From positions 18,287 through 82,286 of the forward strand of contig CAZIDK010000002.1 in the NCBI GenBank assembly GCA_964537895.1: a stretch of DNA of 64,000 nt, read 5' to 3'. Positions within the stretch are counted from its first letter, which is position 1. Every line of letters begins with the position of its first letter. The stretch is from an uncultured Gammaproteobacteria bacterium. GTDB lineage: Bacteria; Patescibacteriota; Microgenomatia; Levybacterales; UBA12049. Made by a program: the position numbers and the translations under genes. Below are positions 5,025 to 58,427 of the stretch, piece after piece. The notes under the pieces were generated by a model that was given only the letters and a program-made list of their open reading frames with translations, searched no databases and was not told the origin of the DNA.

Positions 5025-5095
5025 AGCGGGTAAGGGGAATCGGACCCCTGTACCCTGATTGGCAACCAGGTGTACTGCCATTGTACTATACCCGC
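5025..5095 (-). tRNA. tRNA-Gly (anticodon GCC)
   Basis: Acceptor GCGGGTA/TACCCGC, anticodon stem CCTGG/TCAGG with loop TTGCCAA, U discriminator. Confidence 0.75.
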
Positions 5096-5376
5096 TTCTT
5101 CGCTGCCCTTCGTTGCCTCAGGGCAGGCGCATTATCTTTATTGATCAGTGCAAGCTTCTTATTTCTCGACCAGCTCTTTATTTCATTCTCTCTTCGTAAA
5201 GCCTCGCCCATCGAACTGTAACCTTCAGAGTAAACTAATTTTACAGGTAATTTCCCTTTAATCGATTTTGCACCCCTGATAGATGTATTGTGTTCTTTTA
5301 CTCTTTTTTCAATATTTGATGTAAATCCAGTATATAAAGAATTATCGCTACATCTTACTATATAAACGTAATACAT
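5086..5376 (-). CDS. GIY-YIG domain mini-nuclease (YhbQ-like)
   Basis: MYYVYIVRCSDNSLYTGFTSNIEKRVKEHN; stop overlaps 5' end of tRNA-Gly by 10 nt. Confidence 0.75.
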   Translation of the reverse strand: MYYVYIVRCSDNSLYTGFTSNIEKRVKEHNTSIRGAKSIKGKLPVKLVYSEGYSSMGEALRRENEIKSWSRNKKLALINKDNAPALRQRRAAKKRV

Positions 5377-12528: not shown

Positions 12529-12638
12529 TAGTTAAAGCATCTCACAGCAGAGGAATTTCGTCAAATGATTCTTGCTTAGTCAAGAATCTGGTATCTTTTA
12601 TCCTAAACAACATAAAGTCAATAAGGCCATAGGGTTTA

Positions 12639-13769
12639 TTATAGCTTTTCCGGGTTTACCCTAAGTATCTTATCATCATCGCTTTTTGGTACTCCCCTGC
12701 CGTCTCTATTGCTTGTTAAAATATAAAACATGTTATTAGGATCTATTACAACAGTCCTTAGTCTTCCGAATTCTCCTTTAAAATACTCTGTTAAATTATC
12801 ATTTCCTTTAAGCCTAAACAAAGCGTTACCCTTAAGCCCTGTAAAAAATAAGGAGTCATTGTAGAAGACTGCTCCTCCCGGAGCCCAAGTGACATTTCCG
12901 CTTTGAATTACAGGAGAAACCATATTAAGTCTTGATTTATTTCCAATAATCTCAGGCCATCCGTAGTTTTTTCCAATCTCAATTAGATTTACTTCATCAG
13001 TTGCATTATCGCCATGTTCTGTTTCCCAAAGCTTATTTTGACTATCCCAAGCAAGTCCCTGAGGGTTTCTGTGGCCATAGGAATAAACAAGGTTCTTAAA
13101 AGGATTTCCGGGCGCAGCATTTCCTTCGCTGGTAACACGCAGTATTTTACCAGCTAGTGAATTTTTGTCTTGTGCTAAAGACGGTTTTTGCGCATCCCCT
13201 GTAGTTATGTATAAAAACGAATCAGGACCAAACTTAAGTCTGCCGCCATTGTGGAAAGTTGAGCCGGGGATATTATCTACGATTATTTTTCTATCGATTA
13301 ATTTTTCGTTGGTATATTTATATCTCACCACTCTATTTAAAGTATTATTCTCTGAATTTGCGTAAGTATAATAAAGGTAAACGTAATTATTATTTGTAAA
13401 ACTAGGATGAAGAGTAATTCCTAATAGTCCGCCTTCCCCAATAGTTTTAACATCTGATATTTGCAAAATCGGAGTTTCTCTTAAATTGCCGCTTGCATCA
13501 ATTAACCTTACTCTGCCTAAGCGTTCTGTGAATAAAGCGCTTTTGTCGGGTAAGAATACTAAATCCCAGGGAATTTCCAGGTTTTGAGCAAAAATTGCAA
13601 CTCGTGGTATTTCCTTTGCAGTTTCACTTTTATTTTCAAACTGTGTTACCCTTGGAATATTAGTATGTTCAGATTTTTTAGAAAAAGGTGAAGATAAATA
13701 ATAGGCGCTTACCAAAACAACGAGCAAAGCTAGTACGAAAAGCAACCTGTAATTAGTCTTGTCTTTCAT
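12639..13769 (-). CDS. soluble PQQ-dependent glucose/sorbosone dehydrogenase family (beta-propeller), secreted
   Basis: Signal/TM anchor; PQGLAWDSQNKLW...GWPE motifs typical of the GSDH family. Confidence 0.6.
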   Translation of the reverse strand: MKDKTNYRLLFVLALLVVLVSAYYLSSPFSKKSEHTNIPRVTQFENKSETAKEIPRVAIFAQNLEIPWDLVFLPDKSALFTERLGRVRLIDASGNLRETPILQISDVKTIGEGGLLGITLHPSFTNNNYVYLYYTYANSENNTLNRVVRYKYTNEKLIDRKIIVDNIPGSTFHNGGRLKFGPDSFLYITTGDAQKPSLAQDKNSLAGKILRVTSEGNAAPGNPFKNLVYSYGHRNPQGLAWDSQNKLWETEHGDNATDEVNLIEIGKNYGWPEIIGNKSRLNMVSPVIQSGNVTWAPGGAVFYNDSLFFTGLKGNALFRLKGNDNLTEYFKGEFGRLRTVVIDPNNMFYILTSNRDGRGVPKSDDDKILRVNPEKL

Positions 13770-21942: not shown

Positions 21943-22039
21943 TGGATAAATTCCTTCAAATTATACAATAAAACAAAAACTTTTGTTTTGGGAGTGTTTT
22001 TGGTAAAATAGATATATGGCCCGCCCGACACGCAAGACG

Positions 22040-22075
22040 ACCTGCCCGCCAGTGCCAGGCTTTGGCAGGCGGGGC
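22040..22075. repeat. GC-rich conserved stem-loop motif, copy 1
   Basis: ACCTGCCCGCCAGTGCCAGGCTTTGGCAGGCGGGGC; 37/40 identical to 58391..58427. Confidence 0.6.
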
Positions 22076-22288: not shown

Positions 22289-22564
22289 ATGTATTACGTT
22301 TATATACTTTTTTCAGCGGCTGACAGGCAACTCTATACAGGTTTTACAGATAATCTTCGTTCAAGAGTTAAGGCGCATTCGGGTGGTTATGTAAGAGCGA
22401 CAAAAAACAGAAGGCCCTTAAAGTTAATTTATTACGAAGCATATTTAAGAGAATCAGACGCGAGAAAAAGAGAAAAGTATCTAAAGGGTGGAAATGGTAG
22501 GGGTGAGATGAAAATTCAATTGAGAGAAATTTTGGAAGAGTTGAAGTATAGAAATTTACAATGA
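22289..22564 (+). CDS. GIY-YIG domain mini-nuclease (YhbQ-like)
   Basis: MYYVYILFSAADRQLYTGFTDNLRSRVKAH; 120 nt downstream of tRNA-Arg. Confidence 0.75.
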   Translation: MYYVYILFSAADRQLYTGFTDNLRSRVKAHSGGYVRATKNRRPLKLIYYEAYLRESDARKREKYLKGGNGRGEMKIQLREILEELKYRNLQ

Positions 22565-24954: not shown

Positions 24955-25338
24955 ATGAATGACAAAAAACTTCTGGAACAAATCGAAGGGCTGATTACTA
25001 AAAATCTTGATCCAATCAAGCAAGATTTAAATGGTGTTAAGCAGGGTATCAGTGGTGTTAAGCAGGATATCAGTGGAGTTAAGCAGGATATCAGTGGAGT
25101 TAAGCAGGATATCAGTGGAGTTAAGCAAGATTTAAATGTTGTTAAACAAAATATCAGGGGACTAAAGCAACAATTAGATTCAGTTGAAATGAAGGTTGAA
25201 GTGGTAAATAAAAGAGTAGAGCAATCACAGCATGAAACGATTGAGGCGCTTTCCGAACTTGTTAATACTGGATACAAGTTGCATGAAGAAAGACTTAAAC
25301 GCGTTGAGGAACATTTAAATATACCTGTAAAGAACTAG
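24955..25338 (+). CDS. coiled-coil protein with five GVKQDIS heptad repeats
   Basis: Tandem heptads encoded by 21-bp DNA repeats; C-terminus LSELVNTGYKLHEERLKRVEEHL shared with the 27321..27599 paralog. Confidence 0.6.
   Translation: MNDKKLLEQIEGLITKNLDPIKQDLNGVKQGISGVKQDISGVKQDISGVKQDISGVKQDLNVVKQNIRGLKQQLDSVEMKVEVVNKRVEQSQHETIEALSELVNTGYKLHEERLKRVEEHLNIPVKN
25033..25137 (+). repeat. 21-bp tandem repeat x5 inside the CDS (GGWGTTAAGCAGGRTATCAGT)
   Basis: Five near-identical consecutive 21-mers. Confidence 0.8.
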
Positions 25339-25466
25339 TTTCAGTAAGTCATCATTATTTCTCCATCATTTTTCGTAGAATTTACAGTGTGTAAGTTACG
25401 TCCAAAGTAACGACAACGCAGGTAAAAGAGATTAAAACAAAAAGAGTTTGTTTTAAACAGTCCATT

Positions 25467-25493
25467 CGGGGAAACCCGGTGGGTTGTTTTTTT
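25467..25493 (+). terminator. putative rho-independent terminator
   Basis: CGGGGAAACCCG hairpin followed by a T-run (GTTGTTTTTTT). Confidence 0.35.
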
Positions 25494-25510
25494 ATTTAAC
25501 TTCTTAGCTA

Positions 25511-25545
25511 CTAGGGGTCTTCCCCCCCTCTTTTGACAAGGGTTT
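25511..25545 (-). repeat. 32-nt element AACCCTTGNNAAAAGAGGGGGAAGRSCCCTAG, copy 1 (3' of HD gene)
   Basis: Four copies in the window; see findings. Confidence 0.6.
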
Positions 25546-25562
25546 GGATGAAATTACTGGGT

Positions 25563-26282
25563 TCAGGGATTTAATAAGTCATCAAATGTAATCAAAAAAT
25601 CAGGTCTTTCTTTTATTCCCTCTAAAGCTTTTTCTACAAACTCTTTTCTTTCATCAAACCCGTTTTGCAACATTTCCTTTCCTTTTTTAGTTCTTAATCC
25701 CATTGCTTTTAATTGCTCAACAATAAATAGTCTGGATTGCAAAAAATTGTCTAATCTATACCCTTCGTCATTTCCGTCAGGAAACTGTTTATATTCATAA
25801 AGCGAAACAAAGAAAGGATACATACTTGCGTAACCTGCTTGGTTTAGAATATCTGCGTCAAATAAAATATCCGACTCAACGCTTATCCCTGGAGTAGCAT
25901 ATTCTACAAACGCTTTAACAGTACTCTCAGTTTCTTCATCATTAAAACCAGAATCCTTGAGAATTTGTCTTGAGATTCCTGCTCCTGCTTCTTCGTGGCC
26001 TTCTTTCGTCCTAGTTATTGAATATCCTATATCGTGAAGAACGCAAGCAGCTATAAGAATAGAGGGATTAAATTCTAACTTGTCGCTTTCAGCTATTACC
26101 AAAGCTCTATAAGTAACTTGAGCTATATGGGTATTGAAATTATGATTAGGAAGATTGGCTTTATCATAAACCTCTCTTGATAATGTAATTACTTGTTTAA
26201 GTCTGGGATCTGCTTCAAGATATTTGTTTAAAATATCTTTTCCTAGTTCTGGATTTCCTTTTTGCTCTGTTTTCATAGGCAT
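25563..26282 (-). CDS. HD-domain phosphohydrolase
   Basis: VLHDIGY HD motif. Confidence 0.65.
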   Translation of the reverse strand: MPMKTEQKGNPELGKDILNKYLEADPRLKQVITLSREVYDKANLPNHNFNTHIAQVTYRALVIAESDKLEFNPSILIAACVLHDIGYSITRTKEGHEEAGAGISRQILKDSGFNDEETESTVKAFVEYATPGISVESDILFDADILNQAGYASMYPFFVSLYEYKQFPDGNDEGYRLDNFLQSRLFIVEQLKAMGLRTKKGKEMLQNGFDERKEFVEKALEGIKERPDFLITFDDLLNP

Positions 26283-26311
26283 ATTATACGCTTTTAATTA
26301 CAAACTTTCTT

Positions 26312-26343
26312 CTAGGGCTCTTCCCCCTCTTTTGGCAAGGGTT
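26312..26343 (-). repeat. 32-nt element, copy 2 (5' of HD gene)
   Basis: CTAGGGCTCTTCCCCCTCTTTTGGCAAGGGTT on plus strand. Confidence 0.6.
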
Positions 26344-26384
26344 TCCGGCTACCGCATCCAATAAGCCTAGATTTTTGTAATTTG

Positions 26385-27044
26385 CTAAAGTAAGGACTTA
26401 ATTAAAGTCAGGACTTCACTTAAATCATCAACTACATTTTTCGCCCCTGCACTTACAAGCTCTTCTTTTGAATGATTTGTCGTAATTCCGATTGATTGCA
26501 CAATATCAAGTGCTTTTACCACTTTCATATCCGTTGGCCCATCTGCTACAAATATAATTAAATTCGGATTTTTGTCATTTATTATTTTTTGAAAATGTTC
26601 ATTTTTTGTCTTGAATATTTTATTAGTTCCTAAAATTAAATTAAAATAGTCAGATAACCGATTAAGGGAAACTAAATACTTAAGCTCATCCATAGGAATA
26701 CCACTTGAAATAAAGGTAAAATCAAAATTATTTTTTGCATATTTAAGCAATTCCAATGCTCCAGGGAGAAGTTCTATCTTAGGGTAATATTCATTTTTAA
26801 GAAGATTGCTAAATTTTTTTTCTATAATTTTGTATTCATCATCAGTTAAATTTTTGTTAAATTGTTTTCTGTAATAATAATCAAATTTATATCTCCTGGA
26901 TGTACCTCCCGTAGCAATCCAAAGACTTGCAGCATCGTTTTTGTTAACACTCCATTCTTTATTAAGTAAATCTCCGAATGCAACTGCTTTTTGATGTTCT
27001 ATGTTAATTATTACTCCATCATAATCTGTTCCAAATATTTTCAT
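26385..27044 (-). CDS. HAD-superfamily hydrolase
   Basis: N-terminal DYDGVI (DxDGx motif I). Confidence 0.55.
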   Translation of the reverse strand: MKIFGTDYDGVIINIEHQKAVAFGDLLNKEWSVNKNDAASLWIATGGTSRRYKFDYYYRKQFNKNLTDDEYKIIEKKFSNLLKNEYYPKIELLPGALELLKYAKNNFDFTFISSGIPMDELKYLVSLNRLSDYFNLILGTNKIFKTKNEHFQKIINDKNPNLIIFVADGPTDMKVVKALDIVQSIGITTNHSKEELVSAGAKNVVDDLSEVLTLIKSLL

Positions 27045-27089
27045 AACACATTATATTTTATAGTAGATTACTAGGGATTGCACCCCTCA

Positions 27090-27137
27090 GATTACAAGGG
27101 TCAAGATAAACGAGGTTATTACCTCGCCCTTGTAATC
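27090..27137. repeat. nested inverted repeat GATTACAAGGG...CCCTTGTAATC
   Basis: Perfect 11-bp arms plus inner CGAGGT/ACCTCG arms. Confidence 0.7.
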
Positions 27138-27223
27138 CTCACCCCGCTTTTTTAATTCATTTATTAGGAAGCAGGCAGGCTGCTTCCTAAATATAAATTA
27201 TTAAAAAGAGAGGGGGTGAATAT

Positions 27224-27364
27224 ATGAAACTGTTAACTGACGAATTAAGAAAAGAACTTCCGCCTTTGTATTCTAAAGAAAACGAAAAAGATCCGTTGGT
27301 AATTTGTAAGTTCTTTTTACCTATTGGATGTGAGGAAGTTGTAGATTGTCTTCTACTCTTTTAA
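27224..27364 (+). CDS. small ORF (46 aa), possibly a truncated gene remnant
   Basis: SD AGAGGGGGTG 7 nt upstream of the ATG; MKLLTDELRKELPPLYSKENEKDPLVICKFFLPIGCEEVVDCLLLF; not in the ORF track (<60 aa). Confidence 0.3.
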   Translation: MKLLTDELRKELPPLYSKENEKDPLVICKFFLPIGCEEVVDCLLLF

Positions 27365-27599
27365 TTCTTTTTTCATGCATATTATGTCCTGATGTAACTA
27401 ATTCAGAAAGTACTTCAATTCTTTCTTCCTGCGCTTTGTCAATTTTTTTAATTACAATTTCAATCTTTCTATCCAATGATTCAATTCTTTCATTTGCGTG
27501 CCCTAACTTATTTTCGACAACGCCAAGTTGTGTTTTAATAGGTTGAAGTTTTGTATCAATTAATTCACCGATTTTACCTAATAATTTTGTATCGTCCAT
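27321..27599 (-). CDS. coiled-coil protein, paralog of 24955..25338 lacking the heptad array
   Basis: Shared N-terminus (KLLxxIxxLI) and C-terminus (IEVLSELVTSGHNMHEKRIKRVEDNL). Confidence 0.55.
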   Translation of the reverse strand: MDDTKLLGKIGELIDTKLQPIKTQLGVVENKLGHANERIESLDRKIEIVIKKIDKAQEERIEVLSELVTSGHNMHEKRIKRVEDNLQLPHIQ

Positions 27600-43049: not shown

Positions 43050-43667
43050 TTAATTCCCACTTCCCAAAAATACTCTCGGATTTACAGGTAATCCAAATAC
43101 ATTTATTTGAAAATGTAAATGTGGTCCCGTTGACCAACCTGAACTTCCCTCTAAAGCAATAATATCCCCGGGTTTTACTTCTTGTCCCGGATATACAAAT
43201 ATTTTGTTTAAGTGACCGTAGAGTGAAGTTATATTATCTCCATGATCAATAATAATATGTTTTCCGTATCCCCAGAATATTTCTCCTGCATATATTACTT
43301 TACCCTTCATAAAAGGAGTAATCGGATCTCCCTGCAAACCATATGGATTAGCAATATCAATTCCTGTATGAAAGATCTGATAAGGCCAGTCTGATTCTCC
43401 GAATTCAAGAGTAATTACACCTTTAACAGGCCATGTAATCACAGGCTTAATTTCTTTTATCACCTCTCCCGTTAACGGGTCATAAATCTGAATTGTATTT
43501 GTTTTGGAATCAAAAGAGGTTAATGAATCTGAAACTATATTTACTCCAACATTCATTAAAATAATAACGGCAATAATGGGAAGTGAAATTGCTATTAAGA
43601 ATGAAAGGATTACAAGTTTGAGTTCTCTTCTAAAATTCCAGAGATTTATAAATTTAAATATAATCAT
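43050..43667 (-). CDS. M23 family metallopeptidase
   Basis: HTGIDIA (HxxxD) and GPHLHFQI (HxH) motifs. Confidence 0.75.
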   Translation of the reverse strand: MIIFKFINLWNFRRELKLVILSFLIAISLPIIAVIILMNVGVNIVSDSLTSFDSKTNTIQIYDPLTGEVIKEIKPVITWPVKGVITLEFGESDWPYQIFHTGIDIANPYGLQGDPITPFMKGKVIYAGEIFWGYGKHIIIDHGDNITSLYGHLNKIFVYPGQEVKPGDIIALEGSSGWSTGPHLHFQINVFGLPVNPRVFLGSGN

Positions 43668-44926
43668 GCAGAATATATTTCTCTAGGATCTGTTGTAAGT
43701 AGTGGATGTTCTTTGTCGGATGCAACTACTTTTAAAGCAACATGATTCTGATCCGCAATTATTAAAGCCTCTCCTTTGTCGCAGGTTAAAAGAAAATGCT
43801 GTTCATATTCACTTAAATTAAATTCACTGGCAACTTTTTTAATGGTGGTTGTATCCTGTTTCATTAAGATCCTTAAAGAAGACTGCGAAGCAATCGCTCT
43901 TCCGTAGTCTTGAGAAAGAAAATCATTTGCCTGTTGGGAAATAATAGTTACTCCTAAATAGTATTTTCTTGCCCGTCTTGTAAGGCCTGCGATAAATCTT
44001 GCGCTTTCTTCGTGAGCAAGTAATATCCATCCCTCGTCAATTACAAGTATTCTTTTTTGCGGATTTAGTTTTACTTGTGAATTGACAAAGTTTGCAACTA
44101 CCATCATCATAACTTGTCTTAATGATTCGTCTAAATCTTTAATGTCAAAAACAACAAGCCTGTTTGATAGCTCGATATTTGTATGTTCATTAAATACGCT
44201 AGACAGGGAACCCTTAATATATTTCTCAAGTTTTTGGCTTAATTTCTTCTGTTTAAGCTGTTTAAGTGTTTTATAAAAATCTTTAAGTAGCGGATATGTT
44301 TTTTGTTTTGGTTTTCTGCCCCTAGTGTCTTTTTTCTTTTTCGGTTTATAACCGGGGTTTAATAGCCAGCCGAAATTTTTATATGTTTGAATGATTGCCT
44401 TATCAACAATTCCTTTTTCTTCTGCACTTAATCCTCCAATCATAAGAGAGATAATTTCAGTTAAGTCTTGAACATGTTCTGAAAGTTCACTCTCTCCGTT
44501 TTTAAGATTAATAGATAAATCAAAAGGATTAATTTTTTCTTTTGATTTGGTTGATAATTTTATATACGTTCCGTTTACGGAATTAGTTAATTGTTTGTAT
44601 TCCCGTTCCGGGTCAATGACAATTACTTTTGTTTGCTGCATAAGTTGTCTTAATATTTCTACTTTTGCGGTGTAGCTTTTTCCACTTCCGCTTTGTGCAA
44701 AGATTATGCTGTTTGCGTTATTTAAGGAAAACCTGTCAACAATAACAAGCGAGTTATTTGACTTATTAATGCCATACAAAATTCCTGATTCCTGTACCAG
44801 CTCTGATGAAACAAAAGGAAAAGTAAGAGCAGCCGAAGAACTGTCTAAATTTCTTTTTTGGGAAAGTTGGTTTTCTCCTCTTGGTAAAACGGATTGTAAT
44901 CCTTCAAGCTGTTGAAAGCTTTTCAT
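43664..44926 (-). CDS. VirB4/TraC-like ATPase, C-terminal domain only
   Basis: AQSGSGKSY Walker A, VIDEGW Walker B; only 420 aa vs about 800 for a full VirB4. Confidence 0.5.
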   Translation of the reverse strand: MKSFQQLEGLQSVLPRGENQLSQKRNLDSSSAALTFPFVSSELVQESGILYGINKSNNSLVIVDRFSLNNANSIIFAQSGSGKSYTAKVEILRQLMQQTKVIVIDPEREYKQLTNSVNGTYIKLSTKSKEKINPFDLSINLKNGESELSEHVQDLTEIISLMIGGLSAEEKGIVDKAIIQTYKNFGWLLNPGYKPKKKKDTRGRKPKQKTYPLLKDFYKTLKQLKQKKLSQKLEKYIKGSLSSVFNEHTNIELSNRLVVFDIKDLDESLRQVMMMVVANFVNSQVKLNPQKRILVIDEGWILLAHEESARFIAGLTRRARKYYLGVTIISQQANDFLSQDYGRAIASQSSLRILMKQDTTTIKKVASEFNLSEYEQHFLLTCDKGEALIIADQNHVALKVVASDKEHPLLTTDPREIYSA

Positions 44927-45590: not shown

Positions 45591-45791
45591 ATGAATCAAA
45601 TAGAATTGATAAATCAGGCTCAAGATAAAGTTAAAAAAGTAGGCAGAAAGGTTAAGCTTGCAATATCAACTTTATCCCCGGAAGAACGATTAGATTCCTT
45701 AGCAAATATCGTTATTGAGCGAATTCTTGAAGAAAACCAAAACCCCAAATTACCAGCAATACCAACTAATAAAGGAGATTTAACCATATGA
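45591..45791 (+). CDS. small protein overlapping the recombinase start (candidate directionality/accessory factor)
   Basis: 66 aa, 4-nt overlap with the recombinase gene. Confidence 0.35.
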   Translation: MNQIELINQAQDKVKKVGRKVKLAISTLSPEERLDSLANIVIERILEENQNPKLPAIPTNKGDLTI

Positions 45792-47512
45792 GTGAACCAT
45801 TATTATTAAATAACGCAGTAGCAGCGATTCGTATATCTTCAACCAAGCAAGGCTTGCAAGGCGATTCCCCACAAGCGCAAAAAGAGCAAATAGAACAATT
45901 TGCTATTGCTCACAATATAAACGTCAAAAAGTTCTTTATTTTTATGGAATCTGCGTCAAAAGAAGTGCAACCTGTGCAAGAGGCTATAGACTATTGTAAG
46001 AGCCCAAAAAACGATATACAGCTATTTATAATCAAATCCATAGATAGATTCACTAGGGGCGGTTCATACCTCTACGATCATCTTAAAATGCAGCTTACCC
46101 GTCATAATGTAAAGCTTATTGATATTTATGGCATTATCAGCAATCAGGAGGTTAATACGCTTGAGCATTTGGGACTTCAATATGATTGGAGCGTCTATTC
46201 TCCTACCAAAAAGTCTGAAATTTTAGAAGCAGAACGAGCTAAAGACGAGATTCGAGATATCTTAAGCAGAATGATAGGTGCTGAAATTAGATACGTTAGA
46301 ATGGGCTACAGAGTCAGACCGGCCCCTTTTGGTTATATGAATGAAAAAATAGATACTCCTCACGGAAGAAGAGTAATTCTAAAGCCAGACACTACGGAAG
46401 CGCCATTAATTATTAAAATGTTTGAACTAAGGACTAAGAAAACCTTAACGGATGAGGAAATTGTCAAAGAGGTTAATAAAATAGGATATAAATCCAGAGT
46501 TCATTTATTAAGAGACGGTAAGGATAAGACAATAGTAATAGGACAAAGGGGCGGTATAAAACTTGATGTAAAACGATACGTAGAATACATTCGAAAACCA
46601 ATTTACGCAGGAATAAACGATGAAAAGTGGACCAATAACGAACCAGTTAAAACAAAATTTCCGGGATTAGTTTCTGTAGAAACGTTTAATCAGGCAAACA
46701 GAGGAAAAGTTGTCCTGTCGGAAGAAAACGGAGGGATAACTATTTATAAAAACATGCCTGAAGAATGGAGACTGAGAAAATCCGTCAAAAATCCTGATTA
46801 TCCTTTTAAGCGATATGTTCTTTGTCCAACTTGCAGATATCCGTTATATGGCAGTGCTTCAAGAGGCAGTAACGGAACACGCTACCCTGCATATCACTGT
46901 AATAAAAGAAATCATTATTTCAGAGTAACCGTAGAAACATTTGAGCAAACTATTAAAAACTTCGTAAGTAAAGTCAGAGTTACGAAGGATGGCGTAGATA
47001 AACTAAAAGAAAGAGTATTAAAAAAATGGCAAGATAATCTAATTAAAGGTCAGCTAGATGTTGAAACTATCGATGAGAAAATTAAAAAATTAGATGGTGA
47101 GAAAACACTAATCGGAAACCAAATACCAAGACTTACATCTGATGAAGGCATTAAGCTAATGGAAGAAAAATTAAGCGAAGTTACAAACGAGATTAAACAA
47201 TTAACTGAAACTAAAACAAAACAAGAAGATTTAAATGTAAATATGGAGATAGTTTTGGCAATAGTTGGGGAATTTCTGGAAAACTTATCGTTTTTATTGC
47301 TAGGAAGCCCTAATCCTCTTAAGAGAGCAGCCTATTTTGGACTTATATTTGAACAGACTCCAACCTATCAAGATCTAATTTCTGGAACTGCTCAATTAGC
47401 TCCCTATTTCGAGCTAATCGATGATGCAGGGTATCCAAACCCCGCTACTGTGAGCCGCCTGAGAGTCGAACTCAGAACCTATTCCTTAAGAGGGAATTGC
47501 TCTGCCAGTTGA
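45788..47512 (+). CDS. large serine recombinase (resolvase/invertase N-domain, recombinase domain, zinc ribbon)
   Basis: AIRISSTKQ catalytic Ser region, SIDRFTRG, CPTCRYP...YHCNKRNH zinc ribbon; last ~20 codons are read through the tRNA-Lys complement. Confidence 0.75.
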   Translation: MSEPLLLNNAVAAIRISSTKQGLQGDSPQAQKEQIEQFAIAHNINVKKFFIFMESASKEVQPVQEAIDYCKSPKNDIQLFIIKSIDRFTRGGSYLYDHLKMQLTRHNVKLIDIYGIISNQEVNTLEHLGLQYDWSVYSPTKKSEILEAERAKDEIRDILSRMIGAEIRYVRMGYRVRPAPFGYMNEKIDTPHGRRVILKPDTTEAPLIIKMFELRTKKTLTDEEIVKEVNKIGYKSRVHLLRDGKDKTIVIGQRGGIKLDVKRYVEYIRKPIYAGINDEKWTNNEPVKTKFPGLVSVETFNQANRGKVVLSEENGGITIYKNMPEEWRLRKSVKNPDYPFKRYVLCPTCRYPLYGSASRGSNGTRYPAYHCNKRNHYFRVTVETFEQTIKNFVSKVRVTKDGVDKLKERVLKKWQDNLIKGQLDVETIDEKIKKLDGEKTLIGNQIPRLTSDEGIKLMEEKLSEVTNEIKQLTETKTKQEDLNVNMEIVLAIVGEFLENLSFLLLGSPNPLKRAAYFGLIFEQTPTYQDLISGTAQLAPYFELIDDAGYPNPATVSRLRVELRTYSLRGNCSAS

Positions 47513-51057: not shown

Positions 51058-52422
51058 ATGATTTTACTGGGAAGACGAAGGTTGATATTTTGGCTTTTCA
51101 GGGCGTACCTGAAAAAATGGAGAAAAACTATTTTTGCATCTTTTGTTTTTGGACTGGTAATTTTTTCCGCTATATACCTCGGATGGGGAGTAATAGTTCC
51201 AGGGCTTCCTTTTAATCAGCGTATGGTTGTTGGCATGGCCGGTTCCTACAGTACGGATAATCTTCCATTGGAAGTTTTGCATAAAGCGTCCCGGGGCTTA
51301 ACCCATGTGGCTGAAGACGGAACCCCAAAACCCGATATCGCTTCCGGTTGGAGCATAAAAGATAATGGTAAAACTTATGTTTTTTATCTTAAACAAAATA
51401 TCTACTTCTCAAACGGGGAAAATCTTACATCGTCTTTGGTTAATTACAATTTTTTGGATGTTAAAATAGAAAAACCTGAAAAATATACGATAGTTTTTAA
51501 ATTAAAGGAAAATTATTCCCCATTTTTAATAACTGTTTCACAGCCAATATTCGAAAAAAAATTGGTAGGTGTTGGCGAGTATAGAATTTCGTCCGTAGAT
51601 CTAAACGGTAATTTTGTCAATTCCATAACCCTTATTTCAAATAAAGTTAAAAATAAAACTCTTATCTATCAGTTCTATCCAACCCAAAACGCGTTAAAGA
51701 ATGCCTTCGTAATAGGAGATGTAGATAAAATTGTCGGTTTGGAAGATGTAAATTTTAAGAACACAAATTTTTACTCATTTGAAAATGCAAAAGTTTATAA
51801 GTCTATTAACTACAGGCATCTTGTAACTTTGTTTTACAACACTGAAGATGGGGTCTTGTCGGATAAGAGATTAAGAAGGGCTCTTTCCTATGCCATTCCG
51901 GATTCGTTTAGCATGGGCAAAAGAAATTACGAGCCGTTTGCTCCCAATTTGTGGTTACATCAAGAGTCCAATTACCAAAAAGATTATGCTCATGCAAAAC
52001 TGTTGCTGTCTCAGTCTCAAAGCGCATCGGAAACCGCGAATATGAAAATTACTTTACAAACATTTCCTCAATATGAAAAGGTAGCCAAAGAAATAGCCAA
52101 ATCGTGGTTAAACATAGGAATAAAGACAATGATTAAAGTTGTTGACACACTCCCGATTAACTTTCAGGCATACCTTGGTGATTTCACAGTGCCAAGGGAT
52201 CCGGATCAATACGCTCTTTGGCATTCCGGTCAAATAAATAACATAACCAATTACAAAAGTTTAAGAATAGATAAGCTCCTAGAGGACGGCCGGCAAACCG
52301 TTGATATTCAAAGCAGAATTAAAATATATTTAGATTTCCAGAAATATCTTTTGGACGATGTTCCGGCGGCATTTTTGTACTTCCCCAATTCATATACTGT
52401 TGTAAGAAATTCTGCACTTTAA
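51058..52422 (+). CDS. extracellular solute-binding protein, family 5-like (peptide/nickel ABC SBP fold)
   Basis: N-terminal TM anchor then SBP_bac_5-like body; start set at the internal ATG. Confidence 0.5.
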   Translation: MILLGRRRLIFWLFRAYLKKWRKTIFASFVFGLVIFSAIYLGWGVIVPGLPFNQRMVVGMAGSYSTDNLPLEVLHKASRGLTHVAEDGTPKPDIASGWSIKDNGKTYVFYLKQNIYFSNGENLTSSLVNYNFLDVKIEKPEKYTIVFKLKENYSPFLITVSQPIFEKKLVGVGEYRISSVDLNGNFVNSITLISNKVKNKTLIYQFYPTQNALKNAFVIGDVDKIVGLEDVNFKNTNFYSFENAKVYKSINYRHLVTLFYNTEDGVLSDKRLRRALSYAIPDSFSMGKRNYEPFAPNLWLHQESNYQKDYAHAKLLLSQSQSASETANMKITLQTFPQYEKVAKEIAKSWLNIGIKTMIKVVDTLPINFQAYLGDFTVPRDPDQYALWHSGQINNITNYKSLRIDKLLEDGRQTVDIQSRIKIYLDFQKYLLDDVPAAFLYFPNSYTVVRNSAL

Positions 52423-53687
52423 ATATAGGTAGATTTAGCTCTAAGTTTTTTGTGGTAGCTTATTGCAAATCTATGAGCCTCATCTCTTATTCGCATTACA
52501 AGATGCAGTTGCTTTGAGTCTTTCGGAAGCTTCACCTCTTTAAAATTTGCCGTAATTATTATTTCTTCCTGCTTTGTCAATCCTATAACGGGAATTTTAA
52601 TATTTTCTCTGGCTAATGCTTTGATGGCCGAAGAAATCTGGCCCTTACCCCCGTCCACAATAATAAGATCGGGAATAGCCCATTCATTATGCTTAAGCCT
52701 TCTCTCTATTACTTCCTCCATCATTGCAAAATCATTAGGTAAATCATTGTAGGTTCTGCGAATTCTGAATTTTCGATATAAAGACGGTTCCTTTTCTCCT
52801 TTAATGAATACAGCCATTGCGCCTGTTGCATTTTTTCCCGATGTATTTGAAATGTCATAGCACTCTATTCGATTAAGCTTTGTAATTGTCGTTTCTTCTT
52901 TATTTATACTTTCCAATAATAAGTTTAACTCTTCGTTTCTGATGTCTTCTCTTAAATTTGGGTTTTTTTCATATTCAAAAGGTTTATAAAATTTACCGGT
53001 AACAAGTCTTATTGCATCAATTTTATTTTGTAATAATAAAGCATCTTCAAACTGCTGAGCTTTGCTAAATTCGTTTCTCTCTTTTTCCAAATCCTTTATC
53101 ACGCTTTTTGTCTGCCCGTTTAAAAATTTAATAATGTGTTTAATTGTTCGTTTGTATTTTTTATCTTTTAAAATGCTGGGGCATGGACAAAGGCCGAGAT
53201 GGTAATAAAAACAAATTTTGTTTGGATGATTTACACTAGATTGAAAAGGAAAAATTCTCCTTACTGTTTTTAAAACCAGACGCATAGCGCTTGCATTTGG
53301 AAATGGACCAAAATATAACGAGCTTAGGTCATTCGGTTTTCTTGCCGTTAAAACCTTTGGATACTCGTCTTTTATGGTAATTCTGATTAAGGGATAAGCT
53401 TTTCCGTCTGTTAATTTTATATTGTATTTTGGCTGGTATTTTTTTATTAAATTAGCCTCCAAAAGCAAAGATTCAATTTCAGACTCAACCCTAATTGTTT
53501 TGATTTTGCCTATTTGAGAAACGAGGATGCTGGTTTTTTCTCCTAAATCCTTTCTGTTTGCAAAGTAAGAACGGACTCTTTTTTTGAGGTTGACTGCTTT
53601 TCCAACATAAATTACTTTCCCGCTGCTGTTAAAAAACAGATAAACGCCCGGATCTTGTGATAATGATTGATAAGCTTTAGATTGCAA
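52419..53687 (-). CDS. uvrC: excinuclease ABC subunit C, short form lacking the C-terminal HhH region
   Basis: N-terminal GIY-YIG (GVYLFFNSSGKVIYVGKA), UvrBC-interaction region, RDEAHRFAI endonuclease motif near the C-terminus; 422 aa. Confidence 0.7.
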   Translation of the reverse strand: MQSKAYQSLSQDPGVYLFFNSSGKVIYVGKAVNLKKRVRSYFANRKDLGEKTSILVSQIGKIKTIRVESEIESLLLEANLIKKYQPKYNIKLTDGKAYPLIRITIKDEYPKVLTARKPNDLSSLYFGPFPNASAMRLVLKTVRRIFPFQSSVNHPNKICFYYHLGLCPCPSILKDKKYKRTIKHIIKFLNGQTKSVIKDLEKERNEFSKAQQFEDALLLQNKIDAIRLVTGKFYKPFEYEKNPNLREDIRNEELNLLLESINKEETTITKLNRIECYDISNTSGKNATGAMAVFIKGEKEPSLYRKFRIRRTYNDLPNDFAMMEEVIERRLKHNEWAIPDLIIVDGGKGQISSAIKALARENIKIPVIGLTKQEEIIITANFKEVKLPKDSKQLHLVMRIRDEAHRFAISYHKKLRAKSTYI

Positions 53688-53829
53688 ATTAACTCCTTCT
53701 AAAATTAAATATTTATATCAGGTTTAAGCACAGCGTTTGGGTTATAATCATGGCCTAGTTCCACGTTTTATTATTATTTGAGTATACTATATCGTTTAGG
53801 AGAAAGTAAGGAATTGATATATTGACAAA

Positions 53830-54126
53830 GTGCTCACTTTAATGTACACTCACGGTATGATACAGACAATACCGGTAACAGAAGCTAGAAAGAAACTTCT
53901 TAGTCTTGTAGATGAGATAAATGACGCATATACAAGAGTAGATTTAACTAAAAACGGGAGGATTAAAGCTACTTTAGTTTCTCCAGACTATCTTGATTCC
54001 TTAGAAGAAACAATTTACAGTCTTAATAACTCTTTATCGGATATTAATCTTGCTCAAAAAGAATTAAAACAAGGCAAACTTTTAACTCTGGAAGAAGTTA
54101 AAAAGAAATATAATAAAAAACAATAA
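53830..54126 (+). CDS. Phd/YefM-family antitoxin
   Basis: IPVTEARKKLLSLVDEI... typical Phd/YefM N-terminus. Confidence 0.65.
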   Translation: MLTLMYTHGMIQTIPVTEARKKLLSLVDEINDAYTRVDLTKNGRIKATLVSPDYLDSLEETIYSLNNSLSDINLAQKELKQGKLLTLEEVKKKYNKKQ

Positions 54127-54132
54127 CTTCAA

Positions 54133-54390
54133 ATGTCAGCAAAAAAACTACAATTAGCTCAAAGCGTTGATAAAAATCTATCAAAACTGCCAAAACATAT
54201 TCAGACAAAAATAATTTCTTCCTTTGATAAAATAATGCAAAATCCAGTTTCTGGTATTAAGTTGCATGGAGAGCTTAAGGATTATTATAAGTTTAGAGTC
54301 GGGGATTATCGTATAATATACAGCTTTAACTCGAAAGAAAGCTTAATACAAATAGTTAAAATAGAACATAGGCAAGGTGTATATAGATAG
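54133..54390 (+). CDS. RelE/ParE-family toxin
   Basis: 85 aa; DYYKFRVGDYRIIY core typical of RelE/ParE; 6 nt after the antitoxin. Confidence 0.65.
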   Translation: MSAKKLQLAQSVDKNLSKLPKHIQTKIISSFDKIMQNPVSGIKLHGELKDYYKFRVGDYRIIYSFNSKESLIQIVKIEHRQGVYR

Positions 54391-54504
54391 TTCTGAAATT
54401 ACCATAAGATAAACAAACAAGACTTATTTACTGAAAATTAAATCGATATGTAGGGGAAGATACATTTTTCAAAGCCTTACCGATGTGGTCAGCCAGAACA
54501 TCCT

Positions 54505-54536
54505 AACCCTTGTTAAGAGAGGGGGAAGAGCCCTAA
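54505..54536 (+). repeat. 32-nt element, copy 3 (5' of M23 gene)
   Basis: AACCCTTGTTAAGAGAGGGGGAAGAGCCCTAA. Confidence 0.6.
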
Positions 54537-54577
54537 AAACCTGGTTGACCATTAAGGTAGAGTGATATAATCTTTTA

Positions 54578-55408
54578 ATGGCAATTGAATTAGAAACTTT
54601 TTCATTTAAAAGACATGGAAAATTCCATCATCCTGAAATAAATGGGGTTTCAACAGTTACTGAAAGATATCTAACCCTTCCCTTTTTTAGCGATGTTGGG
54701 TCATATCAAATCACGGAAGGATGGATGTATTCAAGAGCGGAAAAAGCTATCCATGGATATAGAATTCACGGAGCAGTCGACTTTCAAGTTCCTTACGGAA
54801 CGCCTGTAACTGCTCCCTGCGACGGTATTGCCATTTCTTCATATCATTCTTTTCCGTTAAAAGATTCTGACAGAAATATAAAAAAGCTCGAGGGTAAGGA
54901 GTTATATTTTGGTTTAGGATATTTCGTGCAAATTTATGTTGAGCATCTAAATAGATACGTTCAATTGGGACACTTGTCGAAAATAGATGAAACAATTCCT
55001 TTTAGTATGCCAAAACTTGAAGAAGGCACTTGGAATCCTACTAATCACGACTTTAATCCTTCTAATTTAATAGATAGTGGAAAAGCAGTTTTGGTTAAAA
55101 GAGGAGATTTATTGGGTAAAGTCGGATTTTCTGGTTTAAGATTGGGTTACGATGAATATAATGGCGAAGAAAGACCTTTACTGTTAGATACATTGAAATT
55201 TAAAAGTTACGATGAACCTCATTTGCATTTTGAAGAAACAGGAAGAGATGAAAAAGGAAAAAAAGGCTGGCAAAGAGATCCTTATGATATCTATTTGACG
55301 GCAAGAAATTATCCGACTCCTTCAAGACAAAGGATAATGGGAGAAGAGCCCCTTTTTATACTTGGCGAGAATGGTCTTCTTATTTTTGCAAATCAAGTAT
55401 TGAATTAA
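54578..55408 (+). CDS. M23-family metallopeptidase-like protein
   Basis: HGAVDF (HxxxD) and PHLHFEE (HxH). Confidence 0.6.
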   Translation: MAIELETFSFKRHGKFHHPEINGVSTVTERYLTLPFFSDVGSYQITEGWMYSRAEKAIHGYRIHGAVDFQVPYGTPVTAPCDGIAISSYHSFPLKDSDRNIKKLEGKELYFGLGYFVQIYVEHLNRYVQLGHLSKIDETIPFSMPKLEEGTWNPTNHDFNPSNLIDSGKAVLVKRGDLLGKVGFSGLRLGYDEYNGEERPLLLDTLKFKSYDEPHLHFEETGRDEKGKKGWQRDPYDIYLTARNYPTPSRQRIMGEEPLFILGENGLLIFANQVLN

Positions 55409-55435
55409 CAGTAGTCAACTGATCTGCGAAGCGTA

Positions 55436-55467
55436 AACCCTTACCAAAAGAGGGGGAAGGCCTTCTA
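55436..55467 (+). repeat. 32-nt element, copy 4 (3' of M23 gene)
   Basis: AACCCTTACCAAAAGAGGGGGAAGGCCTTCTA. Confidence 0.6.
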
Positions 55468-55476
55468 TATTGCATG

Positions 55477-58359
55477 TTACTTGTTTAAAACTTTTTTTAA
55501 GAACTGGCCGGTGTATGAGTTTTTATTTTCAGTGACTTGAAGAGGCGTACCAACCGCAACAACTTGTCCGCCTTTCTCTCCTCCGTCAGGACCTAAATCA
55601 ATAATGTGGTCTGCGTTTTTTACTACGTCCAGATTATGTTCAATAACTATAACGGTATTCCCCAAGTCAACTAATTTTCTTAATACGCCCAGTAACTTCT
55701 CAAGATCTGCAAAATGAAGCCCGGTTGTCGGCTCGTCCAAAAGATATAACGAATTTGATCCTCTTTTTGATAATTCCGCAGATAGCTTTACTCTTTGCGC
55801 TTCTCCCCCCGAAAGTGTCGGAGCAGGCTGGCCAAGCTTAATGTAAGAAAGCCCAACGTCATTTAAGGTTTGCAGTTTATGGGAGAGTCCCGGAACAAAC
55901 GAAAAAAACGACAAAGCTTCGGATACGCTCATTGCCAAAACCTGCGCTATATTTTTTCCGTTAAATAAAATTTCCAATGCTTCGGAGTTATACTGAAGGC
56001 CGTTGCACACCTCGCAGGTTATATAAACATCAGGCAGAAATTGCATTTCAATTTTTATTCTTCCTTCCCCCTGGCATGCCTCGCACCGTCCGCCTTTTAC
56101 ATTGAAGGAAAATCTGCCGGGTCCGTATCCTTTTAATTTCGCGTCTTTAGTTTTGGCAAAAATGTCTCTTATGTAGCCAAAAGCCGCCGTATAAGTTGCG
56201 GGGTTACTTCTGGGAGTTCTGCCGATTGGCGACTGGTCGATTAAAAATATATTTTTAATGTTCTCAAATCCGCTTATAGCGGTATGTTTGCCCGGTTTTT
56301 GTCTATGAAACGGATTATTCTTCTGCATTAACCCGTGGTACAAGATATCGTTTATCAGCGTTGACTTACCGCTTCCCGAGACTCCGGTTATTACCACAAA
56401 ATTATTTAGAGGAAAAGAAACAGTGATGTTTTTTAGATTATGTTCACTGGCGCCCGAGATGGTTATCGACTTCGTAGATATATTTTTGTTTACATTTGGA
56501 AGCATTTTTATTTTTCTTTTGCCTGACAAATACTCTCCTGTTAACGACTTGGGGTCGTTTTTAATATGCGTAACTGTGCCTTGGGAAATTATATGTCCTC
56601 CGTTTTGTCCTGCTCCCGGCCCAAAGTCTATAATCTGATCAGACTCTTTCATGGTTTCTTCATCGTGTTCTACCACCAGCACAGTATTGCCCAAGTCCCG
56701 TAATTTTTTTAAAGTATCTATTAGTTTTTTATTGTCTTTTTGGTGAAGCCCAATTGAAGGCTCATCTAATACGTATAAAACTCCCGTGAGTCCGCTACCT
56801 ATTTGCGAAGCAAGTCTTATTCTTTGAGCCTCTCCTCCTGCTAAGGTTTGCGCACCCCTTGACAAAGTAAGATAATCAAGTCCCACGTCAATCAAAAAAG
56901 TCAGTCTTTGTTTTATTTCTTTAATAATCAATTTTCCGATTTCTTTTTCTCTGCCGCTTGACTTCTCTTCAATATTTTTTATAAAGTCATAAATATTGGA
57001 TATTGACATATCTGATGTTTGGACAATAGACTTATCATTAATCGTTATTGATAATGCTTCTTTTTTAAGCCTTGCTCCCAAACACTCGGGGCAAACTTCA
57101 TAACGCATAAACTTTTCTATCTGGGCTCTTAAAAAAATTGATTCTGTTGATTGGTATTTCTGCCTTAAGTCGTGCAGAATTCCTTTGAAGGGCTCATTGA
57201 TTGCGGTTTCTCTTCCCCACCTATTTTCCCCTTCAACATAATATTCTTTTTCTCCGGTGCCATTCAAAAGCAATTTTTTTTGTTCGCTGTTTATTTCGGA
57301 TAACCTCTTTGTTAGGGAAATATTGTTTTCTTCTGCGAATGTTTTAAAAGTTCTGGTAAACCAGCTGTCGTGAGAAAGTGTGGTTGTGTATGGCAGAATT
57401 CCGCCTTCGTTTATTGTAAGGTTATTATTAAAAATTAAATCTTTATCAACGGTTAAAATTGTTCCGAGGCCGTTACAAATAGGACATGCTCCGTGCGGAG
57501 TGTTAAAGGAAAAAATTCTTGGTTCTATTTCCGGCAAAGATATTCCGTCTGTCGGGCACGCAAATTTTTCGGAAAATAGTATGTCTTCCATTTTTTTGGG
57601 TTTCTCGGGAATATTAAAGCCTGCGTCTTTGATAACGGAAACTATTAATTCTCCGCTGCCAAACTTTAGTGCTTGTTCAACATCGGTTGTAATTCTTCCT
57701 TTGTCAATATTTTTGTCAAGAACAATCTGGTCGATAACAGCTTCAACCGTATGCCGGTTTGTTTTTATAAGCGTAAATTCTTCGTCTAACGAAAAGACTT
57801 CATTGTCAATTCTTGCCTTTTTATAGCCTCTTTTTTTTAGATCCGAAAAAAGCTCCGTATATTCCCCTTTTCTGTCTCTTACAACAGGAGATAAAATTAA
57901 AATTTTTAATTTTTGGGCTGCATGTTTTTTGGGGAGCTCCAGTATTGAATTTACTATTTGTTCTTTTGAAAGATGCGATATTTCCCTGCCGCATTTTGGG
58001 CAATGGGGATGGCCGATTCGGGCAAAAAGAAGTCTCATATAGTCATATATCTCAGTAACTGTTCCAACAGTAGACCTTGGGTTATGTGAAGTAGATTTTT
58101 GGTCAATTGAAATTGCAGGAGAAAGTCCTTCGATTAAATCAATATCGGGTTTTTTCATAACACCCAAAAACTGTCTTGCGTAAGAAGAAAGACTTTCTAC
58201 GTAGCGCCTTTGCCCTTCGGCATAAATTGTGTCAAAAGCAAGGGAAGATTTACCGCTTCCGGAAAGTCCGGTAAAAACAACGAGCTTATTTTTGGGAATC
58301 TGGACATCCAAATTCTTTAAATTATGTTCTCTGGCGCCTTTAATTATTATTTTATCCAT
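55477..58359 (-). CDS. uvrA: excinuclease ABC subunit A
   Basis: Two ABC ATPase modules ([18 protein letters not shown]), zinc fingers; start set at MDKIIIKG rather than the 46-codon upstream extension of the ORF track. Confidence 0.9.
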
Positions 58360-58390
58360 ATCTTGCTTGCCCCGTATATTCGCCCTTTCG

Positions 58391-58427
58391 ACCTGCCCGC
58401 CAGTGCCAGGCCTTGGCAGGTGGGGGC
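58391..58427. repeat. GC-rich conserved stem-loop motif, copy 2 (about 35 nt upstream of uvrA start)
   Basis: ACCTGCCCGCCAGTGCCAGGCCTTGGCAGGTGGGGGC. Confidence 0.6.

Follow-up and report, generated by a model that had tools for sequence, protein, structure and literature searches.

A polar intergenic repeat as a proposed joint for gene cassettes beside a DNA-transfer module of the Candidate Phyla Radiation

A stretch of 64,000 nt (the window; contig CAZIDK010000002.1, positions 18,287 to 82,286) from an uncultured bacterium of the Levybacterales, in the Candidate Phyla Radiation (CPR), carries a short intergenic repeat which stands before and behind single genes. With a probability of roughly 0.55, we take this repeat as the joint where cassettes are gained and lost, in a variable region that accompanies a DNA-transfer module of the CPR. 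Break and rejoining would occur inside the repeat, and cargo plus one repeat copy would be gained or lost together, giving element-gene-element in one strain and one element in its relative.

Four copies (c1 to c4) had been listed in a preliminary description made from the sequence of the window alone, and a fifth, full-length one is named copy0 here (Table 1). The four were borne out, since the 21-nt core AACCCTTNNNAARAGAGGGGG had four exact matches in the window against a mean of 0.15 in shuffled sequence; for the full 32-mer, 0.00 matches were expected by shuffling. A fifth core match, with three mismatches (27196-27216), is nothing more than a ribosome-binding site. As had been described, the copies bracket the HD-domain hydrolase gene and the M23-like peptidase gene and are co-oriented with both. 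Every copy of the window also sits downstream of a co-oriented gene. With copy0 found, the first locus becomes an array in the order copy0-HAD-c2-HD-c1. The second locus is (Phd-ParE)-c3-M23-c4, placed between uvrC and uvrA; a further copy upstream of phd, which would complete this array, was looked for and none was found. The window thus has five copies in 64 kb, in two clusters of three and two, at a GC content of ~36%. By its RarA and UvrC homologues, the organism is assigned to Candidatus Levybacteria.

The copies differ in detail. Copy c1 reads AAACCCTTGTCAAAAGAGGGGGGGAAGACCCCTAG, with two additional G in the G-run, and the HD stop codon lies within its degenerate 5' part. The last 9 nt of the motif deviate in c4 (3' end GGCCTTCTA), which adjoins the stop codon of uvrA, a gene running towards it. 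In the alignment, all copies remained similar for a further 20-35 nt 5' of the motif, for example TTATTGGATGCGGTAGCCGG in c2.

Gain, loss and exchange of cassettes

A related strain (L050) is 96-99% identical in DNA to the window around the M23 region. There the genes run uvrA - parE - phd - uvrC without the M23 gene, and a 153-nt gap holds one element copy. In BLAST comparison, window positions 52001-54522 and 55437-56600 aligned at ~96% identity, and the two aligned pieces overlap in L050 by 17 nt, which is exactly the duplicated core; therefore the window holds ~931 extra bp, consisting of the M23 gene and one copy. The left side of the single L050 copy is orthologous to the left flank and 5' half of c3, and its right side to the 3' part of c4 and the right flank. 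This is an empty site, for which the preliminary description had proposed to search the relatives. The 25 nt right of the L050 copy are only ~70% identical to the window by our count, an anomaly between near-identical genomes. More distant relatives have a transglutaminase gene at the M23 site, and neither the toxin-antitoxin pair nor the element.

The same gene also recurs between copies elsewhere. In L020, L034 and L058, copies enclose a gene of 165-182 aa which runs antisense to them, and the genes around it are unrelated. L034 and L058 share ~90% DNA identity over this unit, which starts inside the upstream copy and ends inside the downstream copy right after ...CCCTTGTCAAAA. In L040, a full copy is followed directly by a sequence of ~50 nt (flank X) without cassettes, ~81% identical to the window by our count; in the window, flank X stands after c1, that is, behind HAD, c2 and HD. 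Copy0 keeps the P4 hairpin variant GGGGTGCAATCCC of the L040 full copy, while flank X goes with c1. All of these breakpoints fall within the repeat: in the core between the window and L050, at the border of core and P4 between L034 and L058, and 3' of the P4 loop between the window and L040. Halves of copies reassort inside the window too, where c3 combines the 5' half of c1 (with a CATCC insertion) and the P4 of c2, and c2 and c4 have other 5' halves.

At the HD locus, relatives whose RarA is 95-96% identical have unrelated genes behind rarA and lack the repeat. The island varies at this position, and no clean empty site was obtained among these relatives. Exact look-ups of the HD and M23 proteins returned the source genome from sister samples only and no variation.

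Profile search of related loci gave further arrays, in which the copies follow one another downstream of the transfer module. L058 has eight copies over 9 kb between a relaxase gene and a pilin operon, and three, three and two copies were found in L020, L034 and L040, respectively. Within every multi-copy locus all copies lie on one strand: 16 of 16 agree with the first copy by our tally, which has a chance of ~2^-16 if orientation is random. The unit between copies is one to three genes, and the cargo includes hydrolases, toxin-antitoxin pairs, methyltransferases and reverse-transcriptase genes. One unit of the L058 array is an RVT_1 gene (12571-13575).

The copies had been described as always co-oriented with the gene. 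It is true in the window and fails elsewhere, as the genes enclosed between copies were ~12 co-oriented versus ~11 antisense in our tally from gene maps, and the next downstream gene was co-oriented with the copy in 22 of 37 cases (our tally). Because enclosed genes lie on either strand, co-orientation with genes is not a property of the whole family. The copies are oriented by the array, not by the genes. The cassette-like arrangement itself (element-gene-element), as put forward in the preliminary description, is supported by L050, by the co-oriented arrays and by the gene which recurs between copies elsewhere.

The element family and the transfer module beside it

Genome and metagenome collections were scanned by exact pattern; the source genome is absent from the genome collection. 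The scans gave ~20 true homologues from CPR contigs, including one Shapirobacteria genome, besides many chance matches. The 21-nt core matched 29 times in the genome collection, with five real homologues (L006, L020, L022, L023, L027), and the remaining matches were chance, AAAAGAGGGGG-like strings. Viral contigs gave a single chance match to the pattern, and a MobC protein query found no relatives there. The full element had no blastn match in 72,556 plasmid records.

All copies are intergenic, and they are of two kinds: full copies of ~150 nt, and partial copies which correspond to the 3' 35-65 nt of the full element. On the motif strand, a full copy consists of the hairpin H1 (TAGGnAGC...GCTnCCTA), the invariant motif AGCGGGGTGAA, the stem P1, AGA and the hairpin P4 (GGGG-loop-CCCC). 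H1 is a covarying hairpin in full copies. P1 is a stem of 10-11 bp (TTTTGCAAGGG ... CCCTTGyCAAAA) and encloses P2 (a variable hairpin), the motif GTTTATTGGAG and P3, a mini-hairpin of the type GCGAAGC, for which support is limited to full copies. Partial copies have the 3' arm of P1, which is left without its pairing partner, followed by P4, and some have P3 in front; their 5' ends are ragged and their 3' part is fixed. In copy0, which is diverged, we found H1 (TAGGAAGCAG..CTGCTTCCTA), the motif AGCGGGGTGA, an 11-bp P1 around P2, and P4; its P1 stem GATTACAAGGG/CCCTTGTAATC shows compensatory changes relative to other full copies.

From this layout, the 32-nt motif of the preliminary description is the 3' arm of P1 plus P4. 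It consists of the invariant core GGAAACCCTTGyCAAAAGAG and the P4 hairpin, inside a strand-oriented repeat of ~60 nt, which is the 3' half of the ~150-nt structured intergenic element. The core is nearly invariant across several CPR lineages (Levybacteria; Shapirobacteria in L020). Two hairpins had been named for the motif: GGGG..CCCC (P4) is conserved, and CCCT..AGGG is not, since CCCTTG.. is one arm of P1, which exists only in full-length copies.

Folded as single strands, full elements formed P1(P2) and P4 with z-scores of -1.9 to -4.6, and in four of four full elements the motif strand was 0.9-2.7 kcal/mol more stable than its complement. P4 variants, as we read their sequences, retain pairing with changed loops (GAAGG, TAAGA, CAAG, AAG, GCA). 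The register shifts to AGAGG/CCTCT in L038, the second copy of L035 and c4, and G-T wobbles, which are A-C mismatches on the opposite strand, occur in c4, L044c, L031, L040f and copy0. In the variants with wobbles or shifts, by our reading, pairing is kept on the forward strand only. This is modest evidence that the motif strand may act single-stranded, which would fit DNA processing or transfer and is no proof of it.

Several known kinds of site were compared with the element and rejected. An attC site does not match, as the consensus TTATTGGAGGCGAAGCCGGAAACCCTTGTCAAAAGAGGGGGAAGGCCCCT lacks R'' (RYYYAAC) and R' (GTTRRRY) boxes at its ends, has no long palindrome, and partial copies keep only P4. 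For a Rho-independent terminator, P4 is followed by TAA, TAG or GTATTGG without a T-run, and a terminator scan called none at the copies; on the reverse strand, CTCTTTTG follows the 4-5-bp stem of P4 and nothing more. A sigma-70 promoter would have the -35-like TTGyCA, with no -10 at 16-18 bp inside the element, and the promoter scan called none. If P4 is looped out, TTGTCA comes ~17 nt from a downstream TGGTATAAT; this fits L030 only, and neither L065 nor c2. An Xer/dif-type module is also rejected: the core lacks the dyad of such a site (two 11-bp arms, 6-bp spacer), and each unit stands between copies in direct orientation. A tRNA-like att duplication was rejected because ARAGORN and Rfam found no RNA gene at the full element. 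With Rfam 15, the window at gathering thresholds gave tRNAs only, and in five loci, searched at E<=1, no family matched the element. A SAM-I/IV riboswitch was matched in L006 (7185-7309, minus strand; 43.7 bits, gathering 41.1), a CPR-like contig labelled Gammaproteobacteria. Before a mechanosensitive-channel gene (L050 4578-4621; L051 2572-2584; L052 3055-3067), a promoter-like AAACCCTTGTCAAG-N15-TGATATAAT resembles the core; this may be chance, or the promoter may be derived from a copy.

A conserved module of VirD4 coupling protein, MobC (Replic_Relax) relaxase and DUF2958 adjoins the full element in 15 or more related loci of the CPR. The DUF2958 gene stands beside every full copy and is transcribed divergently from it (Pfam E = 2e-16 for DUF2958 of L042), and it comes after the genes for the VirD4-type type IV coupling protein (T4CP) and Replic_Relax. 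The order T4CP-Replic_Relax-DUF2958-element was found in L023, L027, L033, L040, L042, L060, L061 and L065. A large serine recombinase lies upstream in L044/L058, L060 and L065, and beyond the element in L020, L058 and L061 are genes of a type IV secretion system (T4SS): pilin, VirB6 and VirB4. PF13814 (Replic_Relax) is the MOBC relaxase family, and VirD4, MobC and a serine integrase together characterize class 8 of the streptococcal mobilisable elements (PMC5357655). At least 213 homologues of MobC were retrieved. By plasmid database search, DUF2958 is a widespread small plasmid protein of ~100 aa; the literature gave nothing useful on it. A diversity-generating retroelement follows straight after the full element in L065 (11555-18939) and L067, with bAvd, an RVT_1 reverse transcriptase and a target protein of 1540 aa with an FGE-sulfatase domain.

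Features of the two loci and of the remaining window

Table 1. Copies of the element, cargo genes and flanking features at the two loci of the window
Feature	Position	Strand	Remark
c1, partial copy, last of the HD array	25511..25579	-	core + P4 hairpin = 25511-25545
c2, partial copy, TTATTGGATGCGGTAGCCGGAAACCCTTGCCAAAAGAGGGGGAAGAGCCCTAG	26300..26373	-	exact match to the 32-nt motif at 26312-26343
c3, partial copy	54465..54546	+	motif 54505-54536, 2 mismatches
c4, partial copy	55426..55478	+	motif 55436-55467, core identical
copy0, diverged full-length element	27053..27214	-	nhmmer E = 9e-28
HD-domain hydrolase gene, cargo between c2 and c1	25563..26282	-	
HAD-family hydrolase gene, cargo between copy0 and c2	26385..27044	-	
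DUF2958 gene, truncated remnant, divergent from copy0	27224..27364	+	first 31 aa 65% identical to L042 DUF2958
Flank X, sequence after c1	25460..25510	-	includes terminator of convergent gene 24955-25338
Phd/YefM antitoxin + ParE toxin genes, unit preceding c3	53830..54390	+	
M23-like peptidase gene, cargo between c3 and c4	54578..55408	+	weak Pfam match

The HD/HAD locus looks like a decayed remnant of a VirD4-MobC-DUF2958 module; a truncated DUF2958 gene stands next to copy0, and no MobC or T4CP gene was found in the 64-kb window. Two paralogous coiled-coil genes (24955-25338, plus strand; 27321-27599, minus strand; 39% amino acid identity) flank the HD/HAD island as an inverted pair pointing inward, and they may be the ends of a decayed mobile region. 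The gene at 24955-25338 contains seven tandem repeats of 21 nt (24997-25185) coding for GVKQDIS heptads.

At the start of the HD gene the sequence reads TATAATATGCCTATG (26276-26282) and at that of the M23 gene TGATATAATCTTTTAATG (54560-54580), and in each a TATAAT ends 6 nt before the ATG. Such boxes at both cassette genes suggest leaderless or near-leaderless mRNAs.

The window has further mobile or T4SS regions, which have no element copies beside them. A VirB4-like T4SS ATPase gene (43664-44926, minus strand) has a counterpart with 72-75% DNA identity on L020, a Shapirobacteria contig. Two serine recombinase genes are present (45788-47512 and 62473-63915, both on the plus strand), and the latter shares 39% identity with that of the L044 mobilisable element.

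A GC-rich, hairpin-forming repeat of 37 nt (CGACCTGCCCGCCAGTGCCAGGCTTTGGCAGGCGGGG) occurs twice with 95% identity, at 22038-22074 directly before a tRNA-Arg gene and at 58389-58425, where the true start of uvrA follows 30 nt downstream. Of the loci fetched, only contigs of the source genome have it. The window is dense in tRNA genes (15, four of them tRNA-Leu), and three small paralogous open reading frames (86-340, 5086-5376, 22289-22564) each adjoin a tRNA gene.

Explanations and comparison with known systems

Several points weigh against a cassette joint attached to a transfer module. The copies of the window itself adjoin no MobC or T4CP gene, in several loci one full copy stands alone, with no array, and no joint-making enzyme was found. 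MOBC relaxases are PD-(D/E)XK nucleases, which are not known for covalent intermediates or strand joining (PMC3424549, PMC12857230). The breakpoints spread over the repeat instead of one position, so they fit homologous exchange as well as a site-specific cut. The P4 region of the single L050 copy is unlike both c3 and c4, so that either insertion of M23 in the window lineage or its deletion in L050 may have occurred. Formal covariation is weak, with compensatory changes in two pairs only, both in H1, and P1 and P4 hardly vary in the alignment; this is partly because the search pattern fixed the core. The family sample is ~40 copies in ~23 loci, retrieved with one exact pattern.

A putative mechanism for the joint, which we offer as tentative and well short of even odds, is taken from origins of transfer (oriT) and transferred DNA (T-DNA) borders. 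Such sites adjoin relaxase and coupling-protein genes, as do the full copies; the partial copies of the window do not. As a conserved, structured, strand-specific non-coding element beside a relaxase gene, the full element would be the oriT of the module, and the partial copies would be secondary nick or termination sites like T-DNA borders. H1 would be a possible remote binding site of the MOBC relaxase, a family reported to bind far from the nick (PMC12857230). Processing from one copy to the next would free a unit of cargo plus one copy, and the freed unit would re-insert via recombination between its own copy and any resident copy, giving element-gene-element again. The larger idea of a CPR relaxase-based cassette system seems doubtful to us, more so than any explanation of the joints discussed below except the last two. 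In such a system, oriT-derived border repeats by the VirD4-MobC-DUF2958 module would define single-gene segments, which would be cut out, moved via the T4SS and re-inserted at resident copies.

The cassettes could instead belong to an integron-like system with a dedicated site-specific recombinase, where the full element would correspond to attI and the partial copies to attC-like sites on circular cassettes. We think it unlikely, though it has more in its favour than the other rivals. The layout is the expected one, a divergent DUF2958 gene by the full site and then co-oriented partial sites parting one to three genes. Cassettes are present or absent between strains, empty and occupied sites were both seen, the same cassette was in three arrays, and halves of copies reassort as a crossover in the core would give. 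On the side of the enzyme the picture is different. The preliminary description had drawn the analogy with attC, which fails because no IntI-type integrase is near any copy and the R''/R' boxes are missing; in the Pfam annotation around the copies, in the window and at least 15 loci, there was no IntI-type tyrosine recombinase or Phage_integrase. The DUF2958 protein matched no solved recombinase sequence when searched against PDB. The large serine recombinase is found in some loci only, and large serine recombinases leave no long direct repeats. Breakpoints which are not at a single position, and cassette genes in both orientations, also disagree with it. The scatter of breakpoints over core and P4 in three comparisons would rather favour a passive homology patch, that is, a repeat conserved for another reason (regulatory or oriT) between whose copies RecA exchanges cargo, for example after DNA uptake. 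Mosaic variants are common to copies of one genome, suggesting gene conversion (L020b and L020c share the core variant AAGTCATTAGAG), and the duplicated stretch at the M23 site is the shared core only. We still rate this below the integron-like system, as quite improbable: the identity stretches are very short (17-35 nt), the strict co-orientation of arrays and a nearly invariant core across CPR lineages imply a sequence- and strand-specific function, and the origin of each cassette's own copy is left without explanation.

Two further explanations are far less probable. A combined promoter/terminator or operator module travelling with genes, which the preliminary description gave as its alternative, could draw on the TATAAT boxes 23-29 nt downstream of c2 and c3 with near-leaderless start codons, on the -35-like TTGyCA of the core and the genuine-looking promoter AAACCCTTGTCAAG-N15-TGATATAAT which resembles it, and on the reverse-orientation P4 followed by CTCTTTTG. 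We hold it to be very improbable, since the scans called nothing at the copies, there is no forward T-run and no -10 at 16-18 bp from TTGyCA, c1, c4 and the copy of L050 each run up against the 3' end of a convergent gene, and orientation tracks the array and not the downstream gene (co-oriented in 22/37). Least credible of all is a selfish dispersed repeat of the miniature inverted-repeat transposable element (MITE) or repetitive extragenic palindrome (REP) type, bracketing genes by accident. The repeat is indeed short, intergenic and hairpin-bearing, with several copies per genome. Still, the MITE analogy made in the preliminary description breaks down in the copy alignments, which have neither terminal inverted repeats nor target-site duplications; the copies are 5'-truncated forms of a larger element, and the 64 kb have only five of them, in two groups. 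They are strictly co-oriented and linked with transfer-module loci.

Gene flow in the CPR is poorly understood, and the repeat gives a concrete sequence handle on it. It tags a variable region beside the MobC/VirD4 module, reveals gene-by-gene gain and loss between strains 96-99% identical, and can be used as a metagenome query for cataloguing mobile cargo. Should a site-specific activity make the joints, the cassette system would differ from integrons in its mechanism; should homologous exchange make them, the repeat would still mark hotspots of genome plasticity in CPR. A T4SS is found in many CPR bacteria and is indispensable in the only cultivated model; relaxases are reported to be scarce there, and neither an oriT nor a DNA substrate has so far been defined (PMC12102498, PMC12857230). 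Patescibacterial T4SSs are currently thought to be mostly co-opted for functions other than conjugation (PMC12102498). The relaxase-based cassette system, if true, would give them a DNA substrate. It would be an 'integron without an integrase', or else a device by which epibiotic bacteria export DNA in the manner of T-DNA. In a literature search on Patescibacterial T4SS, MOBC relaxases and mobilisable elements, which was not systematic, the element was not mentioned.

Among known systems, integron cassettes and their attC sites, including sedentary chromosomal integrons and clusters of attC sites lacking integron-integrases (CALINs), resemble the CPR arrays in having co-oriented hairpin repeats between small cargo units and a fuller site by a divergent gene, with occupied and empty sites among close strains and one cassette in different arrays. 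The CPR element differs from them in having no IntI, no RYYYAAC/GTTRRRY boxes and no long imperfect attC palindrome. Its cargo lies on either strand, a unit can have several genes, it is linked to T4CP and MobC, and the breakpoints are not at a single position.

T-DNA borders and oriT nick sites are likewise short polar direct repeats, which delimit segments by genes of relaxase, coupling protein and T4SS. Their orientation is set by the transfer system and not by the enclosed genes, and a fuller initiation-type site stands at one end, comparable to the right border with overdrive. Differences are that the CPR relaxase is of the MOBC PD-(D/E)XK kind, whereas T-DNA uses the VirD2-type HUH relaxase, and that nicking of the CPR repeat is putative. 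The CPR element is similar to no plasmid record, and copies also occur at chromosomal sites far from relaxase genes.

The streptococcal class 8 integrative mobilisable elements share the backbone of VirD4, PF13814/MobC and serine integrase; no repeated element or cassette array is described for them (PMC5357655), whereas the CPR loci add DUF2958 and are often beside T4SS pilin/VirB4 operons. Elements exploiting Xer at dif, and the pdif modules of Acinetobacter plasmids, also have one complete and further partial or hybrid sites between successive modules, which are exchangeable between replicons. The CPR element has no 11-6-11 architecture, and its copies are direct, whereas the sites on either side of a pdif module are inverted. 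Polar repeats arrayed between exchangeable cargo units are a known concept from integrons, T-DNA borders and dif-linked modules, and the CPR element, with none of their defining sequences or enzymes, shares their layout.

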